Source: Minisyncoccota bacterium
GTDB taxonomy: Bacteria > Patescibacteriota > Minisyncoccia > Phycocordibacterales > UBA9973
Direction: 5' to 3'
Length of the DNA: 64,000 nt
NCBI GenBank assembly: GCA_035353995.1
Contig: DAOQAL010000002.1
Location: 99,762-163,761, forward strand
The position numbers and the translations under genes were made by a program. The notes under the pieces were generated by a model. It saw nothing but the letters and a program-made list of their open reading frames with translations, did not search any database and was not told the DNA's origin. Of the stretch, positions 190-61,912 are shown in pieces (within the stretch, counting starts at the first letter, position 1; each line of letters begins with the position of its first letter).

Positions 190-1053
190 ATGAAAAATAA
201 ATTTGTAACAGTAGCTGGGGTACAAAGTGTTGTATCCGATGATTTAAAAGAAAACTTAATAAATACTTTTCAAATGGTAGAAGATGCTGCAAGAAATGGG
301 GCACAAATTATTTGCTTGCAAGAACTTTATAAAACTCCTTATTTTCCGCAATATAAAAATGTAAAAAAGGAAAAGTTTTATGAAACAATACCAGGTGAAT
401 CAACAGATGTATTTTCTAGAATTGCAAGAAAATATAAAGTTGTAATAATAGTGCCTATTTTTGAAAAAGATAAAAATGGTAGATATCATAATTCAGCAGC
501 TGTTATAAATATAGATGGAAAACTTTTGCCAACCTATAGAAAAATTCATATTCCTCAAGATCCATTATTTTATGAAAAAGATTATTTTACTGAAAGCAAA
601 GAAGGGTATAAAATTTACAAAACAAAATATGCAACATTTGCAGTTTTGATTTGTTACGACCAGTGGTTTCCAGAGGCAGCTAGATCTGTTAAAATTGCAG
701 GAGCTGATATTATTTTTTATCCAACAGCTATAGGAACTATTAAGGGTGTAAAAGAAAAAGAGGGTGACTGGCATGATGCATGGGAAACTATTATGCGTGG
801 TCATGCTATTGCAAATAGTCTTCATATTGTTGCAGTAAATCGTATTGGTATAGAAAATAAATTAAAATTTTGGGGGCAATCATTTATTTGTGATTCTTTT
901 GGAAAAATAATAAAAAAAGCTGGAGACAACAATGATGAAACAATTATTGCTAAAATTGATTTAGCAAGTAATAAAATTATTGGGTCAGAATGGGGTTTTA
1001 TGAAGAATCGTAGAACAGATACATATAGTTCTATTACAAAAAAAAATAAATGA
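190..1053 (+). CDS. aguB: N-carbamoylputrescine amidase (carbon-nitrogen hydrolase family)
   Basis: Translation carries the CN-hydrolase signatures QELYKTPYF, ICYDQWFPE and YPTAIG and is collinear with known AguB. It overlaps the downstream agmatine deiminase gene by 4 nt. Confidence 0.8.
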   Translation: MKNKFVTVAGVQSVVSDDLKENLINTFQMVEDAARNGAQIICLQELYKTPYFPQYKNVKKEKFYETIPGESTDVFSRIARKYKVVIIVPIFEKDKNGRYHNSAAVINIDGKLLPTYRKIHIPQDPLFYEKDYFTESKEGYKIYKTKYATFAVLICYDQWFPEAARSVKIAGADIIFYPTAIGTIKGVKEKEGDWHDAWETIMRGHAIANSLHIVAVNRIGIENKLKFWGQSFICDSFGKIIKKAGDNNDETIIAKIDLASNKIIGSEWGFMKNRRTDTYSSITKKNK

Positions 1054-2099
1054 ATACTGCAATTACAAAAGAAAATTGTTTAATGCCTGGGGAATGGGAG
1101 AAACATTCTGCTACTTGGCTTGCTTGGCCAAATGATGATGATTATTTTGGAGATAAAATAAAAAATATTGAAAAAATATATTTGCAAATAATTTTTCATT
1201 TGCACAAAGATGAGCCAGTAAAACTTTTGGTTTTAAATAAAGAAAAAGAAGAAAAAGTTAAAGTAATGATGCAAGAGTTTGGAATTGATTTATCAAAAAT
1301 TATTTTTTTTCATGTAGAATATTTTGATGTTTGGATGCGCGACTATGGTCCTACTTTTGTAAAAAAAGAAAATAAAAAAGCTTGGGTAAAATGGAATTAT
1401 GATGGATATGGAATGAAATTTCCAGAACTTTTGCCTGATAATAAAGTATTTTTAACCTTAAAAGATCCCATTAATTTAGAAATGATTGAAGCTGGCATTG
1501 CTCTTGAGGGTGGTGCAATAGAATCAAATGGAAATGGCGTATTAATGACTACTGAAGAATGTTTGCTATTAAATAGAAATATTGGAAAAAATAAAGAAGA
1601 AAATGAACTAATTTTCAAAAAATTACTTGGTATAGAAAAAGTAATTTGGTTGAAACGTGGACTTGTAAATGATCATACTGATGGTCATATTGATGAAATT
1701 GCAAGATTTGTTAGTCCTTTAAAAATTCTTTGTGGATATGAAGAAAATAAAGAAGATGAAAACTACGAAAGATTAAATGAAAATTATAAAATTTTAGAAA
1801 ATTCTACAGATCAAAATGGGAATAAATTTGAAATAATAAAATTACCAATGCCACATATGGAATATAAAAAATGTGAAAAAGAATTTTGTGGTAAAAAAGC
1901 TCCAGTGTCTTATGCCAATTTTTATATTGGAAATAGTACTGTTTTAGTTTCAATTTTTGATGATGAAAATGATAAAAAAGCTATAGAAATAATAAAGTCT
2001 TGTTTTCCAAATAGGGAAGTTATTGGCATAGATTGTCGAGATTTAATATATGGTGGTGGTGCGATACATTGTATTACACAACAAGAACCTGAATTATAA
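1050..2099 (+). CDS. aguA: agmatine deiminase
   Basis: C-terminal GGGAIHCITQQEP is the catalytic Cys motif of the agmatine deiminase/PAD family. Length is 349 aa and it is adjacent to aguB. Confidence 0.8.
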   Translation: MNTAITKENCLMPGEWEKHSATWLAWPNDDDYFGDKIKNIEKIYLQIIFHLHKDEPVKLLVLNKEKEEKVKVMMQEFGIDLSKIIFFHVEYFDVWMRDYGPTFVKKENKKAWVKWNYDGYGMKFPELLPDNKVFLTLKDPINLEMIEAGIALEGGAIESNGNGVLMTTEECLLLNRNIGKNKEENELIFKKLLGIEKVIWLKRGLVNDHTDGHIDEIARFVSPLKILCGYEENKEDENYERLNENYKILENSTDQNGNKFEIIKLPMPHMEYKKCEKEFCGKKAPVSYANFYIGNSTVLVSIFDDENDKKAIEIIKSCFPNREVIGIDCRDLIYGGGAIHCITQQEPEL

Positions 2100-16355: not shown

Positions 16356-16823
16356 TCAGTCTCTCCATATGACTCTGCCACATAGATAAAATTTTTCTGG
16401 TCCGGGAAGAAACTTATTTTCATTAAAAAATTTCTCGAGCAGTTCTTTGAATTTTTTTTCTTTCTCTGCATTTATCGGGTTAAAAAAATTATAGATAAAG
16501 TATTCGACAGAGCCGTCCGTGCTGAAACATATTTTAGTCCAGCAGTTTGATAGTCCTCCCCAGCGGAAACCATTTTGTTGTAGGTAGTAGCCAATTTGAT
16601 TAAGGAAATCATTCCTTTTAGGGAATACAACGGAATCGAAATAATTTTTCTGGAATACTGATTTTTTGATGTCAGAATCAGGTATTCCGTTTCGGTAGAC
16701 TTCATCAATTTTTGCAATTGAAAGATTTTTTTCTTCAAGCTCATAGATGCTCAAAGCTTTTCCTTGTGCGAAAAGGGCAATGGAAAAGAGAAAAATCGGA
16801 AAAAACAGAATAATCTTTTTCAT
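16356..16823 (-). CDS. secreted hypothetical protein
   Basis: 155 aa with a clear N-terminal signal peptide (MKKIILFFPIFLFSIALFAQG). No recognisable domain. Confidence 0.4.
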   Translation of the reverse strand: MKKIILFFPIFLFSIALFAQGKALSIYELEEKNLSIAKIDEVYRNGIPDSDIKKSVFQKNYFDSVVFPKRNDFLNQIGYYLQQNGFRWGGLSNCWTKICFSTDGSVEYFIYNFFNPINAEKEKKFKELLEKFFNENKFLPGPEKFYLCGRVIWRD

Positions 16824-26144: not shown

Positions 26145-26215
26145 GGGCGATTAGTTAAGTGGTATAACTACGGTCTCCAAAACCGTTGTCGGGAGTTCGA
26201 TTCTCTCATCGCCCG
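26145..26215 (+). tRNA. tRNA-Trp (anticodon CCA)
   Basis: Cloverleaf folded by hand. Acceptor GGGCGAT/ATCGCCC, anticodon stem ACGGT/ACCGT with loop CTCCAAA, and T-arm GGGAG-TTCGATT-CTCTC. The 3' CCA is not encoded. Confidence 0.85.
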
Positions 26216-26251
26216 CTACAACAAGCACAGGACAGCTTAATGCTGTCCGAA
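26211..26251. repeat. direct repeat copy 1 (tRNA-Trp 3' end plus downstream GGACAG-loop-CTGTCC hairpin)
   Basis: GCCCGCTACAACAAGCACAGGACAGCTTAATGCTGTCCGA recurs at 27291-27335 with 2 mismatches. Att-like. Confidence 0.55.
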
Positions 26252-26263
26252 AGCGTACTCGCG

Positions 26264-26358
26264 TTTCTCTCATCGCCCGCCTTCGCTCGCAGTAGCGAGC
26301 TACGGCGGGTAAAACCCGTTAGTAGTTCCGCGAAGGCGAGAAGGTATCATGTATTAAC
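26264..26358. other. partial duplicate of tRNA-Trp T-arm/acceptor (TCTCTCATCGCCCGCC) followed by GC-rich nested hairpins
   Basis: Sixteen nt identical to tRNA positions 26203-26218, then CCCGCC...GGCGGG enclosing GCTCGC-AGTA-GCGAGC, then CCTTCGC...GCGAAGG. G+C is far above the local background. Confidence 0.5.
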
Positions 26359-26430
26359 GACCCCATAGGTCTTGCCTCTGGGGTACTCTGGGGTAACTCT
26401 CGACCCCATAGGTCTTGCCTCTGGGGTACA
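26359..26430. repeat. island palindrome family, copies 1-2 (tandem)
   Basis: (C)GACCCCATAGGTCTTGCCTCTGGGGTA repeated twice back to back. Copy 1 carries an internal CTCTGGGGTA duplication. Confidence 0.7.
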
Positions 26431-26566
26431 GAAGGCCCGCTACACCTTGATTTATTTTCTAACTATGTTATTATGCAGATAATGATAGTTTTTTGACATT
26501 CGGTTTTATTGGTTTCCAAACGAGATAAATAATTGTCTTTTGTGGAAACCTTTAAAACCATAAAAA

Positions 26567-27160
26567 ATGAAAAGAATATTTTCAACATTAAGTCCAAAAT
26601 ATGTTTTGGTCTCTTTCTCCAAAGACGGAAAAAGAAAAAGAATAATTCTAAAAGAATTTGGAGTCTGTAGTATTGGCACATATGAAAACATAAAAGCCAT
26701 AGAAAGTGCCCTTACGGATTCCGGTGTTTATCTGACTGACTTGGTCAAGAAAACTATTTCTAGCACAGCTTTTAAATTTACAAGACAAAAAAAAGTTCAA
26801 CTATTCATTCAGATTTCAGCCTCTGATCTTGGCTTCAAAAATGGTGGTAGGTATAAGGATATTATTAACAGCATATTAGGTGCTGTGGTGATATTACGAG
26901 GGAGAAAATACATAGTAGAGTTTTGTCTTCCCGAAGTTGCCTTGTATTTACGTCTACAGTATAAAAATCAACCAGTAGAACCAATTGAAGTTGAAGAGCG
27001 AGTTGATGTTGTTATGGAGCCGATAAAAGGAGAAAGGAATGATTATGTTTTACGCCTAGTGCACGATACAGAAGGAATAGCTTTAGCAGGACATCCTGCT
27101 CATGAAAATTGTCCAAGATATTCCGGTGATAAATTTATTTTTTCTCTGCGTGCCAAGTAA
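26567..27160 (+). CDS. hypothetical protein (sole gene in the direct-repeat-bounded 1.08 kb unit)
   Basis: 197 aa ORF with no recognised motif. G+C is higher than host genes. Confidence 0.4.
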   Translation: MKRIFSTLSPKYVLVSFSKDGKRKRIILKEFGVCSIGTYENIKAIESALTDSGVYLTDLVKKTISSTAFKFTRQKKVQLFIQISASDLGFKNGGRYKDIINSILGAVVILRGRKYIVEFCLPEVALYLRLQYKNQPVEPIEVEERVDVVMEPIKGERNDYVLRLVHDTEGIALAGHPAHENCPRYSGDKFIFSLRAK

Positions 27161-27174
27161 TGGCTAGGTTCTAA

Positions 27175-27210
27175 GGGGTTGTTATTTTTTTACGATGACA
27201 ACCCTTTTTT
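27175..27210 (+). terminator. intrinsic terminator
   Basis: GGGTTGT ... ACAACCC stem followed by a T6 run, directly after the 26567 ORF stop. Confidence 0.5.
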
Positions 27211-27290
27211 ATTTCCCCAAACCAATAAATTCCCCAATACTAACCATAACTAAAGGATAGTATTTCAAAAGTTCTGAAATTCCTATACTA

Positions 27291-27335
27291 AGCCCGCTAC
27301 AACAAGCACAGGACAGATTAATGCTGTCCGATAAG
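27291..27335. repeat. direct repeat copy 2 (att-like)
   Basis: AGCCCGCTACAACAAGCACAGGACAGATTAATGCTGTCCGATAAG. Compare with 26211-26251. Confidence 0.55.
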
Positions 27336-27364
27336 TAGTTTTTAATTATGATATAATTTAATTT

Positions 27365-27982
27365 ATGAAACTTATAATTTTTGATTGGTCTGGAGTAATA
27401 AAAGATGGATTGGAGAGCAACTTGTGGATTTGTAATAAAATATTTGAAAAATTCGGAGTACCAACTATTTCACTTGAGGAATTTAAAGAAAATTATGAAC
27501 TTCCTTACATGAATTTTTTTAAGAAATATATTCCTAGTCTAACTCTTGAAGAAGAACGAATTATATATAAAAAATATATATTTGATATAAATTGTCCAAA
27601 ATCTAAATCGTGCTTAGGTATTATTGAATTAATTAAGAAACTAAAAGAAAATAATTATCACTTAGCAGTGGTAAGCTCTGATTTTCCAGGAACAATTTTT
27701 GCAGAAATAAAAGAGTATGGGTTGGAAAATATTTTTGATGATGTAATTACAGGTATATATAATAAACTCGAAGGTGTTAATAATGTTATAAAAAAAAGAA
27801 ATTTTGATTTAAGTAATACTTTTTTTGTTGGTGATACTAATCATGAAATAGAAGTGGCAAGACAGGCAGGTATAAAAAGCATAGCAGTAACTTGGGGGTT
27901 TTGTTCTGAGCAAAAACTTAAATTAGAAAATCCAGATTATCTTGTGCATAATTCAAATGAATTAGAAAAGATTCTTTTGTAA
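27365..27982 (+). CDS. HAD-superfamily hydrolase-like protein
   Basis: N-terminal IIFDWSGVI (motif I with DWSG rather than DxDG) and GDTNHEIEVARQAG (motif IV-like). Length 205 aa. Confidence 0.45.
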   Translation: MKLIIFDWSGVIKDGLESNLWICNKIFEKFGVPTISLEEFKENYELPYMNFFKKYIPSLTLEEERIIYKKYIFDINCPKSKSCLGIIELIKKLKENNYHLAVVSSDFPGTIFAEIKEYGLENIFDDVITGIYNKLEGVNNVIKKRNFDLSNTFFVGDTNHEIEVARQAGIKSIAVTWGFCSEQKLKLENPDYLVHNSNELEKILL

Positions 27983-28053
27983 ATCTTGTGTACATTGTGC
28001 ACTTTATAGATAAATTAAATCTACAATACTTATCCCCAAAAAAACAAAAATAA

Positions 28054-28080
28054 GCCCCCGCAAAAAAATTTTGCGGAGGC
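28054..28080. terminator. bidirectional terminator hairpin
   Basis: GCCCCCGCAAAA-AAA-TTTTGCGGAGGC, a 12-bp stem with one mismatch, flanked by A/T runs. It lies between convergent genes. Confidence 0.5.
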
Positions 28081-28142
28081 TTAAGTGTTTAAGAGTTAAA
28101 ATAATCTGGGAGATTATTTTAAGGTCCTCAAGTAATCAAGTA

Positions 28143-28943
28143 TCACTTCCTAGCGACCGACAAACCGAGATCGCTACTGCGGTGACTATCCCAGTAGCCG
28201 CCGACGTTCAGACCCCCGCCGTCAAAGAAGCCGACGTTGACGTGATCGCCGCCCGAGTCGAGGCTTGATGTGCGGACATAAATTCCGCCAAACAAGTAAA
28301 CGTCTCTGACTGCTTTGTAGGTTGTGATTGCCCAGGTGAATTCAGCAGAATTCGGTACAGTTTCAACATCGGAAATCAGGGTTTGCTGTTCTTCCCAGTT
28401 TTTAGAAGTTGATTCGGGGACAGGGTTCTTGCGAATCATGTACCATTTTGTTTCAACTTTGTCTTTCTGTGAAAAATTCTGATCAGCATACCATCCACCA
28501 TCTTTTGAGTAGAAGTAACCATTTTTCATGGTACGAATCTCAAGAAGAGACATTGGACGGTTGGGACCAGCGACAAGCATGTAACTGTTGTCACGGCACC
28601 ATTCCAGAATTTCTTGTGCAGGAACTGTTTCGCCGAACTTGGCAAGCTGTTCTTCGGTGTAAGTAACTCCTTTACGTGATTTCATCACGTCTTCAGGAGA
28701 AATGAAATCCTTACCGAGAATTGTGCGAACCAGTTCATAATCTGGAGCTTTCATGGAGAAACGCTTGATACCTGTAAGCAGGTAAGCAGCGAATCCAGGA
28801 TTCTCATTCAGAACCTGTGCACTTTCTTCTGTCAGTCCAGCCTTATTGTATTGGGCACGAAACGATTCGGTAGCTCTCTGTCCTTTCGGACTGTCTGCGG
28901 TTACCAGTGCAGACGTGTTCAATGACTTTTTCATCGACATCAT
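28143..28943 (-). CDS. hypothetical protein, compositionally foreign (~50% G+C)
   Basis: 266 aa ORF. The DNA is conspicuously GC-rich (e.g. 28150-28280) against an AT-rich genome. It has a Gly-rich C-terminus and no recognised domain. Confidence 0.45.
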   Translation of the reverse strand: MMSMKKSLNTSALVTADSPKGQRATESFRAQYNKAGLTEESAQVLNENPGFAAYLLTGIKRFSMKAPDYELVRTILGKDFISPEDVMKSRKGVTYTEEQLAKFGETVPAQEILEWCRDNSYMLVAGPNRPMSLLEIRTMKNGYFYSKDGGWYADQNFSQKDKVETKWYMIRKNPVPESTSKNWEEQQTLISDVETVPNSAEFTWAITTYKAVRDVYLFGGIYVRTSSLDSGGDHVNVGFFDGGGLNVGGYWDSHRSSDLGLSVARK

Positions 28944-28990
28944 CCTTTATTGGTTTTACCGAAATCGCTCGGCAACGGCTTTTCTCGTTA

Positions 28991-29043
28991 ATGAGATGAG
29001 CTTTTTAAGTCCTATAATATAAGGCATAAAAAGCTCATCTCAT
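28991..29043. promoter_or_regulatory. perfect 17-bp inverted repeat (ATGAGATGAGCTTTTTA / TAAAAAGCTCATCTCAT) enclosing a TATAAT box
   Basis: Seen directly, immediately upstream of the 28143..28943(-) gene. Candidate operator or hairpin. Confidence 0.4.
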
Positions 29044-29116
29044 GGAAGTGATATTTTAAAAGAACTCTTTCTATTATATCATATATAATGCTTTTGTCAA
29101 TAAACTATTTTGCATT

Positions 29117-29159
29117 ACCCCATAGGTCACCCCATAGGTCTTGCCTCTGGGGTAACTCT
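29117..29159. repeat. island palindrome family, copy 3 (with a 12-nt partial duplicate in front)
   Basis: ACCCCATAGGTC + ACCCCATAGGTCTTGCCTCTGGGGTAACTCT. Confidence 0.7.
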
Positions 29160-29303
29160 TTACTTTTAATAACATTCGTGGTATTGTACCATTACAATGG
29201 TTCTTTGAAATTGAACATGATTATTACTTGTTTGGATTACCTTGCACTTCCTTTGGGAGTTTGAAGTAATCCAAATGAGTATAAACAATTAAAGACAATA
29301 GTT

Positions 29304-29633
29304 ATGGAAAAATTAAAAAAATACCGACTAGGTAATCAGCCTACTGAGTATGAACTTGTTACAGAATATTTAGGGTGGCTTCCTGAAGACGCATCAAGTT
29401 GGTGGGACGTGTTCCAAATAATGGTTTCTTCTTCTGAAATTACAGGTAAAGAAATAACCATTACTAATCCTGAAAAAAATAAAAAAATTACAATTATTAT
29501 TGACCATAGAATTGTAAAAGATGCATTTCCCATGTCTTTTTTCGTGGAGGAGAGAGCAAAAAATTGGTATGATTTTTGTATTGTATCAAGTAAGGATAAA
29601 CCATCTGAAAAATTTATTATTCCACTTCACTAA
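29304..29633 (+). CDS. hypothetical protein
   Basis: 109 aa ORF with no recognised motif. It is preceded by a 10-bp inverted repeat (TTTGGATTAC ... GTAATCCAAA, 29231-29274). Confidence 0.35.
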   Translation: MEKLKKYRLGNQPTEYELVTEYLGWLPEDASSWWDVFQIMVSSSEITGKEITITNPEKNKKITIIIDHRIVKDAFPMSFFVEERAKNWYDFCIVSSKDKPSEKFIIPLH

Positions 29634-29688
29634 GTAGGGGGTATCCGAGCTTGAAGAGCTGGCATTTTTGTGTCAGCTTTTTTTATTT

Positions 29689-29720
29689 CTACATAGGTCT
29701 TGCCTCTGGGGTAACGGAGT
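29689..29720. repeat. island palindrome family, copy 4 (5' arm degenerate)
   Basis: CTACATAGGTCTTGCCTCTGGGGTAACGGAG. Confidence 0.6.
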
Positions 29721-29808
29721 ATTTTTCCATACTTGACTTTATCAATTTAAAGATGTATTATTAAACTGATATTTTATATAGTTCTTAACATTTAAAAAGG
29801 AGGTTTAA

Positions 29809-30408
29809 GTGAAAGATTTATTTGTCTGGCTTACCGTGATCACAATGACCACGTTTATTATTATTTATGTATACCAGATTTATAAGCATAAAATTTTTCC
29901 AGCTCTGTCTACTTGGATTATATTTCTTTGTGGAGTTGGCCTAAGTTTTGTTACTTATATTATTTCAGAAAAAAATGATTTAAGTTCTGGCGTATTAAAT
30001 ACCATAGATCTCCTGAACGTAGTAGTTGTAACTATCGCAATAATTCTTTGGGGTAAAAGAAGTCTACATCTTAAGCCTTTTGAAAAATGGTATTTAGTTG
30101 CTGTTGGTTTAATTATTTTTTATGGAATAATAACTGGTGATGCATGGAGTTCAAATATCTTAACTCAAGTATTAATTAGTGTTGGATATTTTCCAACCAT
30201 ACACGGTTTATTAAAAAGTAGGGTAAACACAGAATCATTCATTGGGTGGGGAATTAACTTGCTTGTTAGCTTTTTTGCCTTATACCCAGCATCGGTTAAT
30301 GGTAACCTGCTTGCAATAATTTATGCAACCAGAGCAGCCGTCCTTATCTCTGTATTATTAATAATAATGGTTTATTGTGAATTGACTAAAAAGAAAAAAC
30401 TAGCCTAG
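29809..30408 (+). CDS. polytopic membrane protein with GTG start and strong SD
   Basis: 199 aa with about 6 TM helices. AAGGAGGT lies 7 nt upstream of GTG, which is atypical for this genome. It is homologous to the 61313..61912(-) ORF (shared YQI.K, W, and Y..T/RKK tail). Confidence 0.5.
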   Translation: MKDLFVWLTVITMTTFIIIYVYQIYKHKIFPALSTWIIFLCGVGLSFVTYIISEKNDLSSGVLNTIDLLNVVVVTIAIILWGKRSLHLKPFEKWYLVAVGLIIFYGIITGDAWSSNILTQVLISVGYFPTIHGLLKSRVNTESFIGWGINLLVSFFALYPASVNGNLLAIIYATRAAVLISVLLIIMVYCELTKKKKLA

Positions 30409-30457
30409 TACCGAAAGGGAAAGGCTTTTTTTATTTTATTCTTATGTCTTTGATACT

Positions 30458-30494
30458 GAGTTACCCCATAGGTCTTGCCTCTGGGGTAACTAGG
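30458..30494. repeat. island palindrome family, copy 5 (longest: 14-bp arms)
   Basis: GAGTTACCCCATAGGTCTTGCCTCTGGGGTAACTAGG. Confidence 0.7.
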
Positions 30495-30538
30495 TTTTAC
30501 TTGAACAATCTTTTTTCTTCCTTTTCAAAAGTTGTCAG

Positions 30539-30575
30539 AGCCAACCCCATAGGTCTTGCCTATGGGGTTCTTACC
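30539..30575. repeat. island palindrome family, copy 6 (perfect variant)
   Basis: GCCAACCCCATAGG-TCTTG-CCTATGGGGTTCTTACC. Eleven-bp perfect arms with CTCTGGGG changed to CTATGGGG. Confidence 0.7.
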
Positions 30576-30708
30576 TCCGTATAAAATACTATTGATTTTT
30601 TTGTATAGTATGTTATACTTTTAGTAATAAAAGTTTTTTTAAAAAAGTGGTTTTTGGTTTTCATAGGAGATAAATTTTGTCTTTTACGAAAACCAAAAAC
30701 CTCTAAAG

Positions 30709-31422
30709 ATGAAAAAAATCGTTTTTATTTTTGCAATGATGATGACATTCTCATCTTTGCAATTTGTGTACGCACAGGAAAATGTCGTACAGAACTGGAA
30801 TTTCCAAGAAGATTCGGACAATGACGGACAAGGAGATTATTGGACTTCACTTTGCTCTCCGTCTGTTTTTTCATGGAGCATCGTATACGGTGTTCAGTAT
30901 GTAAAGTGCGATTCAGTGTATTGTTACTCCGGGTCATTGGTGCAATATTTTCCGGATTCAATAATGCCTGGAACGTATATGCTTGAATTTGATACGTATT
31001 GTAGCAGAATTCTATGGCCATTTGTTGTACTACATGATTACAAACTGTCTTTCATCGGCACGGTTGTGCCGTCGACATGGCAACACTACGAAATTACATT
31101 TACTTCGTTAGCTTGGATAAGCGGTGTCGGTTTTTTAGCTGAGAGTGCAATTTCTCAAATAAAAATGGACAATGTAAAGTTGTATTTGCTATATGGAGTA
31201 GGATGTGAAAAACAAAAAGTAAAGCAATTAAAATTCTACCCGAATCCGGTCACTGATTACGTAAATATTTATTCATACGAAAATAAAAGAATCAGTATCT
31301 ACGATGTCTCCGGAACAAATTTTGGTCATTTTGATTTATTAAATGGTCAAAACAAGATCAATATGAGTTTTCTACCGTCTGGAATTTACATATTAGACGG
31401 ACAGAAAGTTCTGAAGAAATAG
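30709..31422 (+). CDS. secreted Cys-rich protein with Bacteroidetes-type T9SS (Por) C-terminal sorting domain
   Basis: Signal peptide ending ...VYAQ. The C-terminus KFYPNPVTDYVNIYSYENKRISIYDVSGTNF ... LPSGIYILDGQKVLKK matches the T9SS CTD consensus. G+C is elevated and there is no SD. Confidence 0.6.
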   Translation: MKKIVFIFAMMMTFSSLQFVYAQENVVQNWNFQEDSDNDGQGDYWTSLCSPSVFSWSIVYGVQYVKCDSVYCYSGSLVQYFPDSIMPGTYMLEFDTYCSRILWPFVVLHDYKLSFIGTVVPSTWQHYEITFTSLAWISGVGFLAESAISQIKMDNVKLYLLYGVGCEKQKVKQLKFYPNPVTDYVNIYSYENKRISIYDVSGTNFGHFDLLNGQNKINMSFLPSGIYILDGQKVLKK

Positions 31423-31439
31423 GGGGAAGTGGGAAAAAG

Positions 31440-31472
31440 GGAGGTCTCAATCAAAATGAACCTCCTTTTTTT
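31440..31472. terminator. intrinsic terminator (bidirectional)
   Basis: GGAGGT ... ACCTCC hairpin plus T7 run, between convergent genes. Confidence 0.6.
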
Positions 31473-50777: not shown

Positions 50778-51047
50778 TTATCTCCCTCGACTAAATTTTA
50801 AATAATTTGCCAATTGTTTTTTAAGAAACTTATACCCAGAACCGCTTTTCAAAAATTTTTCTCTGCCTATAGCATCTCTTTTGTCTACATAAGCTTCATA
50901 GTAGATTAATCTCCAATCTGTTTTTCTGCTCGTTGTTTGACCTCCATTTCCAGATAAATGGTTTTGCAATCTTTTCTTTAGGTTGCTTGAATATCCTATA
51001 TACCAACTCTTATCATTTTTTGATTCTAAAAGATATATATAATACAT
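50778..51047 (-). CDS. GIY-YIG nuclease family protein
   Basis: YIYLLESKNDKSWYIGYSSNLKKRLQNH is the GIY-(x10)-YIG motif plus a conserved R and N. Start is moved to the internal Met (MYYIY), because the tracked N-terminus is a translation of the tandem repeat. Confidence 0.65.
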   Translation of the reverse strand: MYYIYLLESKNDKSWYIGYSSNLKKRLQNHLSGNGGQTTSRKTDWRLIYYEAYVDKRDAIGREKFLKSGSGYKFLKKQLANYLKFSRGR

Positions 51048-51053
51048 AAATCT

Positions 51054-51134
51054 GGTCGCGTAAAAGCTAAAGCTCACGCGACTCACGATACATTAATATT
51101 GGTCGCGTAAAAGCTAAAGCTCACGCGACTCACG
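51054..51134. repeat. two identical 34-nt direct repeats (GGTCGCGTAAAAGCTAAAGCTCACGCGACTCACG), each a hairpin
   Basis: Copies at 51054-51087 and 51101-51134, upstream of the GIY-YIG gene. Confidence 0.75.
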
Positions 51135-51210
51135 TAAAATGCTTCGCATCCACCTGGCATTCCCTTACAGGGCCTGACACGTGGAAAATTGTAAAGCAAT
51201 TTTCTTTACG

Positions 51211-51284
51211 TGGCTGGGAGACTAGGAATCGAACCTAGATTAAAGGCTTCAAAGGCCTCTGTCCTACCGTTAGACGATCTCCCA
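51211..51284 (-). tRNA. tRNA-Gln (anticodon TTG), CCA encoded
   Basis: Hand-folded from the reverse complement: TGGGAGA-TC-GTCT-AACGGTA-GGAC-A-GAGGC-CTTTGAA-GCCTT-TAAT-CTAGG-TTCGATT-CCTAG-TCTCCCA-G-CCA. Confidence 0.8.
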
Positions 51285-51420
51285 ATATTAATATTTTTAT
51301 AGAAGATATACTGAATTATATACAAAAGACGATCTCCCAATAAATACTAAATAAATATAACATATTTGACTTTAAATCGGAATATTAAATTTTAGAGTGA
51401 ATTTTTTTTAAAAAAATAAG

Positions 51421-51450
51421 AAAAAAGTAAAACCCTGCGGGTGCAGGGTT
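51421..51450 (-). terminator. intrinsic terminator for the 51471..51884(-) gene
   Basis: AACCCTGC-GGGT-GCAGGGTT perfect hairpin, with a T-run on the minus strand. Confidence 0.6.
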
Positions 51451-51470
51451 TCGGGGAAGAGAAATTCTTT

Positions 51471-51884
51471 TTACGGAAAAGCCAAAGGAGGAATGGCTCG
51501 AAGTTCTTTTTGCATCTCTTCGTATTTTTCAAAGAGTGCTCTTGCTAGGCAAGTAACGGCGGTAAAATCTTTCAACTTATATTTTGGATATGTATCACCC
51601 TTGCGCCATTCCACAATATAGAAAAAAGCTTTAGAGCAGAATTCCCACGGATTTTTTATGCCAAGTAATCCGTAGATGGTCTGCGAAGTACTGTCTTCGC
51701 ACTTATGCAAATGATCTTCCTTGACCTCTAAGGTCATGTCGCCAATCTTAATATGATCATTAATTCTCAATGTGTGACCATTGAGCTCCTCTAAGTTTTG
51801 ATACAATGCCATAGCTGTTGGGGTTTTAAATGGTTTGTACTTTATTTTTCGTTTAAATCTTAACATGTTTTTGCTCTCGGTCAA
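51471..51884 (-). CDS. hypothetical protein
   Basis: 137 aa ORF. G+C is moderately elevated. No recognised motif. Confidence 0.35.
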   Translation of the reverse strand: MTESKNMLRFKRKIKYKPFKTPTAMALYQNLEELNGHTLRINDHIKIGDMTLEVKEDHLHKCEDSTSQTIYGLLGIKNPWEFCSKAFFYIVEWRKGDTYPKYKLKDFTAVTCLARALFEKYEEMQKELRAIPPLAFP

Positions 51885-51895
51885 AATAAATCTAT

Positions 51896-51934
51896 AAATA
51901 AAAAAGCTTGGTCGTAATTAGCCAAGCTTTTTTG
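51896..51934. terminator. terminator hairpin, copy A of a 40-nt direct repeat (AAATAAAAAAGCTTGGTCGTAATT[A/G]GCCAAGCTTTTTT)
   Basis: Hairpin AAAGCTTGG-loop-CCAAGCTTT flanked by A and T runs, downstream of the purB stop. Confidence 0.65.
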
Positions 51935-51953
51935 TTAGTATACTCCACAATTC

Positions 51954-53444
51954 TTACTGCTCGATAATTTCTTTGAACAGAATCGCTTCGTTTTTGAGAA
52001 GAAAAGACGGCTTGAAAATTTCATGCCATTTCTTTTCTATTTCCGGATCTTGGAAAAGATCCTTGAGAATCTTGTTGTACTCATCCACATTATTTTGATT
52101 TGCTTGTTGCAGTTGAGAATTTGGTCTCAATTTACCGGTCAAAATAATTTCCTCAATCGAAATGGGCGACTTTGGAGGATTCTTTCTTTTTTCGCACAGA
52201 AGAGACTCAGCTTCCTGGAAACTTTTTGGTGCCTCATCTTCAGGATCGAAAGTATTCACTTCGTCAAAAGCATTAAAGCAGGCGAGCTGTACCAGACGAT
52301 AACACCCTTCATAATCCAGATTGGCTTTTTCAGAAAGATGTTTCTTCAGGAATTCTTTTACTTCACTTGAAGCATAAACTCCACGCGAATCAATAATTTC
52401 CTGAAGCATGTTTCCTCGGTAAACCGTCAAATTGGTGAAGACTTTATTGATCACGTCGAGAGCTCTTGCTACAACATGAAATAAGTCCGGCCAAGCCACT
52501 CTTTCTACCGAAGATTGTTCAATGGAACGCTCTTCCCAGGTTTTAATATTCTCCGTAATGGCAAGGGTGTATCCTTTTGCCAAGCGGGCAAGGCCTTCAA
52601 TCTGTTCGAGTTGGATCGGGTTTTTCTTGTGTGGCATAGCGGAAGATCCTGTTTGCTTTTTCTTGAATGGCTCCTGCAAAAGGGGACGACCACTTCGTGC
52701 ATTCAATCGCACATCGTTGGCGATTTTGTCTAACACCAAGATCATGTTCAGCAGTGCCTGTGCCACAGGTGCGTGCAGTACTCTCGGCAGTATCTGGGTT
52801 GAACCATAAAATGGATTAAACCCAAGGATTTCCAGAGCTCTTTTTTCTACCTCCGGAGAAATACTGCCATAATTACCTACAGCACCGGATACTTTTGACA
52901 AGAATAGTTTTCCGACGACAGCATCAGAAAATGACTTGCGTGCTACTCTTAAATCAGCTTGCCAGGAGAGGGCTCGAGCGCCAAGACTTTTCAACTCGGC
53001 TTCTTGCCCGTGCGTTCTTCCTATCATTACAGTGTAACGATTTTTTCTGGCAAAATTGATGAGGGTTTTCTGGTAAATAGTTAATTTTCCATCAATGATT
53101 TCACAAGCTTGATAAAGCATCTGCAAGAAAGGTGTTTCCTCCGTGTCATAGGAGGTAATCTTGTTGTGTACGTACTTCTGCAGTTTCAAAGGCAAGTGTC
53201 TTACTCGCTCAAGGATAAAGGCGTTGAGATCATGATGAATCTCTTCATCTTTATTTTTCCACCACTCGAGATCAGTGGTTTTTTCGTGCCAGACTCTCGA
53301 AATTTTCTCGTGGGTTCCGGCGGGGATGTACCCGAGCTCCTCTTCTGCCTTTATCACAGCAAGCTCCATTTCTTGCCAGAAAAATGTCTTGTTTGTGTCG
53401 GCAAAAATTTGCTTAATTTCTTTATTAGCATAACGTTCAATCAT
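51954..53444 (-). CDS. purB: adenylosuccinate lyase
   Basis: MIERYANKEI N-terminus and the fumarate-lyase signature GSSAMPHKKNP. Length 496 aa. G+C is visibly higher than in neighbouring host genes. Confidence 0.8.
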   Translation of the reverse strand: MIERYANKEIKQIFADTNKTFFWQEMELAVIKAEEELGYIPAGTHEKISRVWHEKTTDLEWWKNKDEEIHHDLNAFILERVRHLPLKLQKYVHNKITSYDTEETPFLQMLYQACEIIDGKLTIYQKTLINFARKNRYTVMIGRTHGQEAELKSLGARALSWQADLRVARKSFSDAVVGKLFLSKVSGAVGNYGSISPEVEKRALEILGFNPFYGSTQILPRVLHAPVAQALLNMILVLDKIANDVRLNARSGRPLLQEPFKKKQTGSSAMPHKKNPIQLEQIEGLARLAKGYTLAITENIKTWEERSIEQSSVERVAWPDLFHVVARALDVINKVFTNLTVYRGNMLQEIIDSRGVYASSEVKEFLKKHLSEKANLDYEGCYRLVQLACFNAFDEVNTFDPEDEAPKSFQEAESLLCEKRKNPPKSPISIEEIILTGKLRPNSQLQQANQNNVDEYNKILKDLFQDPEIEKKWHEIFKPSFLLKNEAILFKEIIEQ

Positions 53445-61298: not shown

Positions 61299-61335
61299 TA
61301 AAAAGCCGGATGTCATAGATATTCGGCTTTTTTTG
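61299..61335. terminator. bidirectional terminator hairpin
   Basis: AAGCCG-loop-CGGCTT plus a T8 run, between convergent genes. Confidence 0.5.
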
Positions 61336-61912
61336 TTCTGTACGAGTATATCAGTATTACAATTAAACCATTCCCTATAATATTAACGATAGGGTAGACA
61401 AGAGATATTTTTTCTCCGGTATAATTGCATATTACTGTTAACGTAGCAAATACTCCACTTATAATTCCAAGAATCCAGGCAGCCTGATGTTCCTTTTCAC
61501 CATGTAAAATTTGATAAGCTATAGGTAAAAAAGAAATAAAATAAACAATTTGCAATAAAGCATTTGAAACTTGATCGTTTCCGTCAATTACCCAAAATAT
61601 TCCGATAAAAACCACTAAGAATATACAAATAACTTCAGTGACTTTTATCTTTGAAAATTTCTTACAAAGAAGTGCGATGAAAAAAATTCCAACAACTAAA
61701 CACAAATTAGTGATTGTAATTAGTGTTTGCCAAAAATCTTTCACTGCTTCAAAGTAGGTAATAACATTAATGATTGCTTCAAATACCCATAAAGCTACTG
61801 TAACAGGATTAGGACTAGATAATGTTTTATGTATTTGATACGAGTAACGTGTGTACTCGGCAACAGCAAACAATGATGCCAAAATGGCAAAGAACTGACT
61901 TAAAAAAAGCAT
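61313..61912 (-). CDS. polytopic membrane protein, paralogue of the island ORF 29809..30408
   Basis: 199 aa, the same length and TM layout as 29809..30408. Shared blocks are YQIHK..S.P vs YQIYKHKIFP, a central W, and a ..YRTKK tail vs ..ELTKKKK. Confidence 0.45.
   Translation of the reverse strand: MLFLSQFFAILASLFAVAEYTRYSYQIHKTLSSPNPVTVALWVFEAIINVITYFEAVKDFWQTLITITNLCLVVGIFFIALLCKKFSKIKVTEVICIFLVVFIGIFWVIDGNDQVSNALLQIVYFISFLPIAYQILHGEKEHQAAWILGIISGVFATLTVICNYTGEKISLVYPIVNIIGNGLIVILIYSYRTKKAEYL

Follow-up and report, generated by a model that had tools for sequence, protein, structure and literature searches.

The DNA analysed here is a stretch of 64,000 nucleotides (64 kb, hereafter the window), which covers positions 99,762 to 163,761 of contig DAOQAL010000002.1 in the GenBank assembly GCA_035353995.1 and has a G+C content of 30%. 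Its host belongs to Candidatus Paceibacterota, which in the NCBI taxonomy is the phylum Minisyncoccota in the kingdom Bacillati, and is a lineage of the candidate phyla radiation (CPR, Patescibacteria). The subject of this study is a single gene near the middle of the window (hereafter the target gene), whose protein product has been deposited in identical form as HNW71865.1 and HPT18114.1 from two metagenome-assembled genomes (MAGs) at NCBI. In the NCBI annotation (PGAP) this protein is already recognised to carry the C-terminal domain (CTD) by which proteins are sorted to a type IX secretion system (T9SS). Listed here are the gene and its parts.

30709..31422 (+ strand): complete coding sequence for 237 amino acids, comprising a signal peptide, a jelly-roll domain resembling carbohydrate-binding modules (CBMs) and a T9SS type-A CTD (HNW71865.1 / HPT18114.1).
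30709..30774 (+ strand): signal peptide of the type exported by Sec and cut by signal peptidase I (Sec/SPI), residues 1-22, with MKK, a hydrophobic core and VYA↓Q, assigned by inspection and a hydrophobicity scan.
30775..31203 (+ strand): N-terminal domain, residues 23-165, a beta-jelly-roll of the CBM type in the predicted structure.
31219..31419 (+ strand): T9SS type-A CTD, residues 171-237, a seven-strand immunoglobulin-like (Ig-like) sandwich, assigned by profile matches, alignment and predicted structure.

An earlier note on this DNA, made from the letters alone, had taken the last 70 or so residues for a T9SS CTD, and the profile check confirmed this. Pfam PF18962 (Por_Secre_tail) matched residues 177-230 with 39.7 bits (E=6e-10) and NCBIfam TIGR04183 matched with 29.1 bits, both above the curated cut-offs (a gathering score of 27 bits for the former and 23 bits for the latter). 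The domain is located at the extreme C-terminus and ends at the stop codon of a protein with an N-terminal signal peptide, the frame is intact, and all motifs of the family are kept: YPNP, the conserved Gly in …VSG… and GIY, with QKVLKK at the end of a short last hairpin. By experiment, the determinants of a functional CTD have been defined as the seven-strand sandwich, a conserved Gly that opens β4 (motif Lβ3β4) and, in the C-terminal strand, a conserved Lys (motif C-t) (PMC11285876), and all of them are present here. The predicted domain is a compact 3+4 Ig-like beta-sandwich (β1-β7) that superposes on solved CTDs at 1.3-2.0 Å rmsd, the Gly at the start of β4 (in 'IYDVSGTNF') is invariant in the CTD alignment (A1), and the tail 'GQKVLKK' places Lys in the last strand. 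This is a genuine type-A T9SS sorting domain. In most CTDs the last hairpin is longer by about 7 residues, and a truncation was considered as the cause of the difference. However, the same ending recurs in about 6 other full-length proteins among the 150 best matches (for example "GIYFLDGQKIVKK" in P0030), so that a truncation was rejected and the short tail is a natural sub-variant.

At the other end of the protein, the N-terminus MKKIVFIFAMMMTFSSLQFVYA↓QENV resembles a Sec/SPI signal peptide with Gln at position +1 of the mature protein. Gln at this position, the so-called Q-rule, is reported to be specific to Bacteroidetes (PMC5837995), and the target fits it, in agreement with the reading of …VYAQ as a Bacteroidetes-type form in the earlier note. 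The only clearly native secreted protein in the window (ORF, open reading frame, 55898, …KVFA↓ETEN) has no Gln at +1.

The domain between signal peptide and CTD, which is rich in Cys, Trp and Tyr, had been called unknown. It is true that it has no Pfam match, but its predicted structure allows more to be said. In the fold test it fits a beta-jelly-roll of about 110-150 residues, and we predict that it is a lectin-type, glycan-binding jelly-roll like those of the CBM4/9/22/29 modules. The AlphaFold2 (AF2) model was built on an alignment of 29 sequences, since the single-sequence model reached a pLDDT of 42 and was unusable; it is confident for both domains and of low confidence for the first ~50 mature residues, which are Cys-rich. 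Identity with the structural neighbours is 9-19%, no CBM family in Pfam or NCBIfam matched the target, so that it is placed in no defined CBM family, and a profile of the N-terminal-domain family found nothing significant among PDB sequences. Sub-threshold matches of homologues, to CBM_4_9 (E 0.007 on P0092) and to DUF642 (E 0.02 on P0094), agree with the jelly-roll assignment. The relatives of this domain are three secreted proteins of ~200 amino acids (P0007, P0092 and P0094) with 26-30% identity to it, which share with the target an opening made of a signal peptide ending in …AQ and the motif N-L-I-x-N-G-x-F-x-D-x-N-N-D-G-x-x-x-Y-W. In these three proteins the full PF18962 domain is replaced by a tail of ~35 residues resembling a 'mini-CTD' (e.g. 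…VDFYDMGGNKLTEEPSKGYYIKVENNTSKTILK), and they may constitute a small, undescribed family of CBM-like proteins with an abbreviated sorting tail, presumably from Bacteroidota.

By sequence the target is an orphan, as a search of 5.8 billion proteins returned only its own 90% cluster. When 1.84 billion representatives were scanned exhaustively with HMMER, 263 matches at E <= 1e-3 were obtained, nearly all of them to the CTD only; an indexed homology search with the CTD alone gave no candidates. All of the organism-named CTD neighbours belong to Bacteroidota, i.e. Flavobacterium (two species), Flavobacteriales, Dysgonomonas (two), Saprospirales, "Bacteroidetes", Chryseobacterium and Petrimonas. 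Another close CTD is located on a contig carrying OmpA and AsmA, and on the contig of one N-terminal-domain relative with an …AQ signal peptide a TAnnTTTG box immediately precedes glyS. Of single CTDs, the closest (P0006, on contig L010) shares the short tail of the target; its contig has a PilB-like ATPase and no Shine-Dalgarno (SD) sequences, and a neighbouring protein of 643 amino acids has a signal peptide …LSA↓QQ that fits the Q-rule, so that this contig may itself be from Bacteroidota. The T9SS is described as confined to Bacteroidota/FCB (PMC5445135, PMC10515386). Thus the distribution of the CTD, the named neighbours, the Gln at +1 and the relatives with …AQ signal peptides all argue for a Bacteroidota origin of the coding sequence.

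In the CPR lineage of the host, a search of 415 kb (the window and 41 related loci) with a CTD profile hidden Markov model (HMM) found the target only. CPR bacteria are not known to have an outer membrane or a T9SS, and no account of T9SS CTDs in CPR turned up in the literature searched. When 41 window ORFs were scanned with Pfam, with precomputed Pfam calls for others, the scanned ORFs belonged to housekeeping families (ATP synthase subunit a, DnaB, RecR, TopA, DprA, RelA/SpoT, ParB, MurA, MiaA, MltG, PBP2, CtpB and several aminoacyl-tRNA synthetases) or had no match; T9SS- or outer-membrane-related families were absent among them, with about 15 ORFs outside the scan, and the statement in the earlier note that the context shows no T9SS is borne out to this extent. 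At 190-2099 (+ strand) there is a pair of genes for a CN_hydrolase and a 'Porphyromonas-type peptidyl-arginine deiminase' (PF04371) with host-typical codons, which is most likely an ordinary polyamine route via agmatine deiminase and N-carbamoylputrescine amidase and not another link to Bacteroidota.

The composition of the target gene is also foreign to the window. At its third codon positions the G+C content (GC3) reaches 0.366, the window median being 0.160 (robust z +5.3), and by synonymous-codon likelihood it is the fourth most atypical of the 64 window ORFs (z -3.95). The segments for the signal peptide, the N-terminal domain and the CTD are equally atypical, which argues that the gene came in as one unit. 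It is located at the distal end of a variable island, followed directly by the housekeeping CPR genes mltG, miaA and murA, and the features around it are listed below.

26217..31470 (no strand): variable island of ~5.2 kb with six ORFs, between tRNA-Trp and mltG.
30464-30486 and 30545-30567 (+ strand): two of six 23-nt hairpin repeats CCCCATAGGTCTTGCCTCTGGGG, in the spacer upstream of the target gene.
30592..30619 (+ strand): promoter-like TTGATT-16-(TG)TATACT, ~90 nt upstream of the start, by consensus match.
30646..30704 (+ strand): two-tier leader hairpin of ~59 nt (dG -31.1 kcal/mol, z -6.9), ending 4 nt before the ATG.
31433..31472 (no strand): hairpin with an A-run and a T-run between the convergent target gene and mltG, resembling a bidirectional terminator and weakly better than shuffles (z -2.4).

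The start of the island adjoins tRNA-Trp(cca) (26145-26216), and four of its six ORFs are among the seven most codon-atypical in the window. The 3' end of the tRNA gene is partly duplicated twice (26198-26216 / 26262-26280 and 26211-26250 / 27292-27331), and the longer repeat, 40 nt with 98% identity, brackets the orphan ORF 26567-27160. These repeats resemble att-type scars of site-specific integration. There is no integrase or other mobility gene among the island ORFs in Pfam, PHROG and NCBIfam scans; apart from one HAD hydrolase and the CTD of the target, these ORFs have no match in the three libraries. Every atypical ORF for which a look-up was possible is a singleton, known from these MAGs alone, and a permissive search of the island with Rfam yielded, tRNA-Trp aside, nothing but sub-threshold noise. 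Across 35 loci collected via MltG relatives there is no conserved order of genes even where the MltG proteins are 64-69% identical, and therefore the insertion cannot be dated by synteny.

Several other ORFs inside and outside the island are also unusual. The most atypical in the window is ORF 28143-28943 (- strand, 266 amino acids), with a G+C content of 0.467 versus 0.30 and a codon z of -7.0; it has no match in any library, the protein collection has no exact copy of it, and a 26-nt perfect-type palindrome (28991-29043) lies just upstream. Two polytopic membrane proteins of 199 amino acids, at 29809-30408 (+) and 61313-61912 (-), are paralogues (25% identity, E 3e-6) with mildly atypical codons, and their genes are the only ones in the window with a strong AGGAGG SD. 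Another orphan of atypical composition is ORF 16356-16823 (-) (GC3 0.35, codon z -3.8), without any Pfam, PHROG, NCBIfam or PDB match; its signal peptide, MKKIILFFPIFLFSIALFA↓QGK, is of the Bacteroidota style and obeys the Q-rule, and this ORF too may have been imported, from a donor like that of the target gene. In addition, there is a second atypical patch at 50778-53444 (-), whose genes flank tRNA-Gln (51211-51284). Several public assemblies break in this patch, and it is probably another tRNA-linked variable region. It contains a Lyase_1-family gene (51954-53444, G+C 0.42, codon z -6.3), an orphan ORF (51471-51884, GC3 0.41) and a GIY-YIG nuclease gene (50778-51086).

The non-coding flanks of the target gene have affinities of their own. 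The 23-nt element CCCCATAGGTCTTGCCTCTGGGG is a G+C-rich hairpin with a 13-bp stem and one conserved mismatch (z about -4). It has six copies, all on the + strand (26361-26383, 26404-26426, 29130-29152, 29689-29711, 30464-30486 and 30545-30567), which in the window occur only inside the tRNA-Trp island and between ORFs, with none expected by chance. It was considered as a marker of the donor and rejected, since its core is found verbatim with different flanks in MAGs of Nomurabacteria, Minisyncoccia and other Patescibacteria (33-42% G+C; L002-L007). It has no Rfam family and no match in viral contigs, and may be a dispersed CPR element of the repetitive extragenic palindrome (REP), terminator or recombination-site type. 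The leader hairpin has a homologue at 26503-26562 before the island ORF 26567, ~75% identical with pair-preserving changes. The two copies end 4-7 nt before the ATG of the first and the last + strand ORFs of the island (26567 and 30709), and may represent a shared cis-regulatory or recombination element. The earlier note had correctly observed that the target gene has no SD and had counted this for a Bacteroidetes origin. This second step does not stand, because genes of the host itself lack an SD as well: only two of the 64 window ORFs have a full AGGAGG core and four more have a weak 4-nt match. Many starts in the window lie 5-10 nt after a TATAAT-like box (e.g. 20153, 23663, 27365, 34929, 47545, 55081, 55898 and 62353), a pattern which suggests that leaderless or very short-leader mRNAs may be widespread in this Paceibacterota genome.

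Considering the above, we think that the target is quite probably a Bacteroidota-style T9SS cargo gene that was horizontally acquired as a unit and resides in an island of a CPR genome. Several points weigh against this conclusion. The flanks are of the CPR/island type, as the 23-nt hairpins occur in CPR MAGs and the leader is common to ORF 26567, and the Bacteroidota -7 box TAnnTTTG is absent upstream of the target and the other atypical ORFs. A GC3 of 0.37 would also be normal for a higher-GC CPR genome. The search for a donor found none nearer than ~36-48% identity in the CTD, so that its phylum is read from the distribution of the family, and tblastn of contig L010 against all the loci collected gave no matches and assigned it to no phylum. 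Moreover, the search for a T9SS and an outer membrane covered the 64-kb window, and beyond it their absence is what the lineage leads us to expect. Judged from the sequence, the coding region looks Bacteroidota-derived while its non-coding context looks CPR/island-type; with such flanks and no donor copy, the last transfer was perhaps from CPR to CPR or via a mobile element. The idea of a gene freshly transferred from Bacteroidetes, put forward in the earlier note, therefore holds in part: foreign composition, Bacteroidota relatives of the CTD and the Q-rule speak for the transfer, while the flanks and the missing TAnnTTTG box do not, and as the databases hold no near-identical donor copy, 'fresh' is a relative term.

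How such a gene would behave in this host can be outlined. Export would be by the Sec pathway, with cleavage by signal peptidase I after VYA. As the cell is expected to have no outer membrane, the mature protein of ~24 kDa would then arrive directly at the surface or in the medium. With neither translocon nor PorU sortase, the CTD would not be cut off and would persist as an Ig-like appendage. The lectin-like domain would be the source of any activity, which might be the binding of a polysaccharide belonging to a partner cell or to the environment. We put use of the gene and a neutral passenger at roughly equal odds. Use is favoured by the intact frame and motifs, the promoter-like site (such sites are no commoner here than in shuffles), the shared leader and the terminator-like hairpin, and is disfavoured by the orphan status, the island location and the hairpin abutting the start codon. 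The earlier suggestion of a non-functional cargo gene is not borne out by this combination of an intact ORF and CTD with promoter-like, leader and terminator-like structures.

The rival that survives best is compatible with horizontal acquisition. It holds that the gene is a decaying passenger, neutral and no longer expressed or folded, and we regard it as possible, if somewhat doubtful. A CTD without its cognate machinery, borne by an orphan in a variable island, would fit such a fate, and the very stable hairpin just ahead of the ATG could prevent translation from starting. However, decay is hard to see in an open frame with every conserved CTD position kept, in a confident AF2 model of both domains and in a sequence that is identical across several samples; the related leader before another intact island ORF (26567) suggests that the leader is a used signal.

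Less probable, and in our view unlikely, is a family of CTD-like domains that is resident in CPR and serves independently of the T9SS, for example as a generic Ig-like surface module, so that the gene would be native to CPR or circulating there. The CPR/island-type repeats and leader around the gene are in its favour, as is the intact gene with all motifs conserved, and P0006, with its short tail on a contig whose PilB-like ATPase and missing SD sequences are compatible with CPR, could belong to such a family. On the other hand, there is no second CTD in the 415 kb of related CPR DNA, the target protein is a singleton with host-atypical codon usage, and CTDs in CPR are missing from the literature searched. 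The organism-named neighbours all point to Bacteroidota, where P0006 may belong as well if the …LSA↓QQ protein next to it is a guide. More improbable still is that the CTD has been retained because it is used, either in a T9SS-addressed lectin, released by the CPR cell as an episymbiont and then recognised and displayed by the T9SS/PorU of a Bacteroidota partner (mimicry of host cargo by an effector), or as a T9SS-independent surface module in a cell lacking an outer membrane. This idea is kept because the motifs for translocon recognition are fully preserved where no translocon is expected.

An assembly or binning artefact, in which a Bacteroidota fragment was chimerically joined to a CPR contig, might be proposed from the foreign composition and from the breaks of some assemblies in this region (an 8.6-kb Logan contig). 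It is, however, extremely improbable, as several independent assemblies (two NCBI MAGs and those of JGI, ENA and Logan, with contigs of up to 250 kb) all place the gene between the same CPR neighbours, CPR-known hairpin repeats lie within 150-250 nt of it, and mltG, miaA and murA follow at once. We give just as little credit to a T9SS-like apparatus elsewhere in the genome with the target as its ordinary cargo, for which there is room because the analysis covered 64 kb of the genome: the host is a member of Minisyncoccota in the kingdom Bacillati, outside the range of the system given above, the scanned window ORFs are housekeeping or unmatched, and T9SS-bearing species typically carry many CTD proteins and not a single one.

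If horizontal acquisition from Bacteroidota is correct, the locus is a clean case of inter-phylum gene flow into a CPR genome in which a secretion signal has been cut off from the machinery that reads it. The locus would then also be a hint that Bacteroidota live in the habitat of this Paceibacterota population and may be physically associated with it. It is also a warning for annotation, as the label "T9SS sorting domain-containing protein" does not imply that the organism has a T9SS.

Compared with known systems, the target is one orphan gene, apparently obtained by horizontal transfer, a curiosity in a variable island and not a new kind of system; its host is unusual, but the architecture of a CBM-like module with a type-A CTD is commonplace in Bacteroidota. 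Like other tRNA-linked genomic islands, the island has tRNA-Trp adjacency, partial repeats of the tRNA 3' end, atypical composition and orphan genes, while it differs in that no mobility gene was found and in its dispersed 23-nt hairpin known from other CPR genomes. The small CBM + CTD proteins of marine Bacteroidota (such as the CBM in PDB 8xmz, which binds porphyran and comes from a 'T9SS C-terminal target domain-containing protein', and CBM4, CBM22 and CBM29) differ from the target in that it belongs to no CAZy or Pfam CBM family. The target can also be compared with the type-A cargo of the T9SS (PF18962 / TIGR04183), such as mirolase and other KLIKK peptidases of Tannerella forsythia, and FspA and NucA of Flavobacterium johnsoniae. 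It shares with them the signal peptide with Gln at +1, the seven-strand sandwich, YPNP, the Gly before β4, GxY and a Lys-rich last strand (QKVLKK in the target versus KLIKK), and differs from them in that it is located, as a single copy in the sequence examined, in a CPR genome where neither a T9SS nor an outer membrane is expected.
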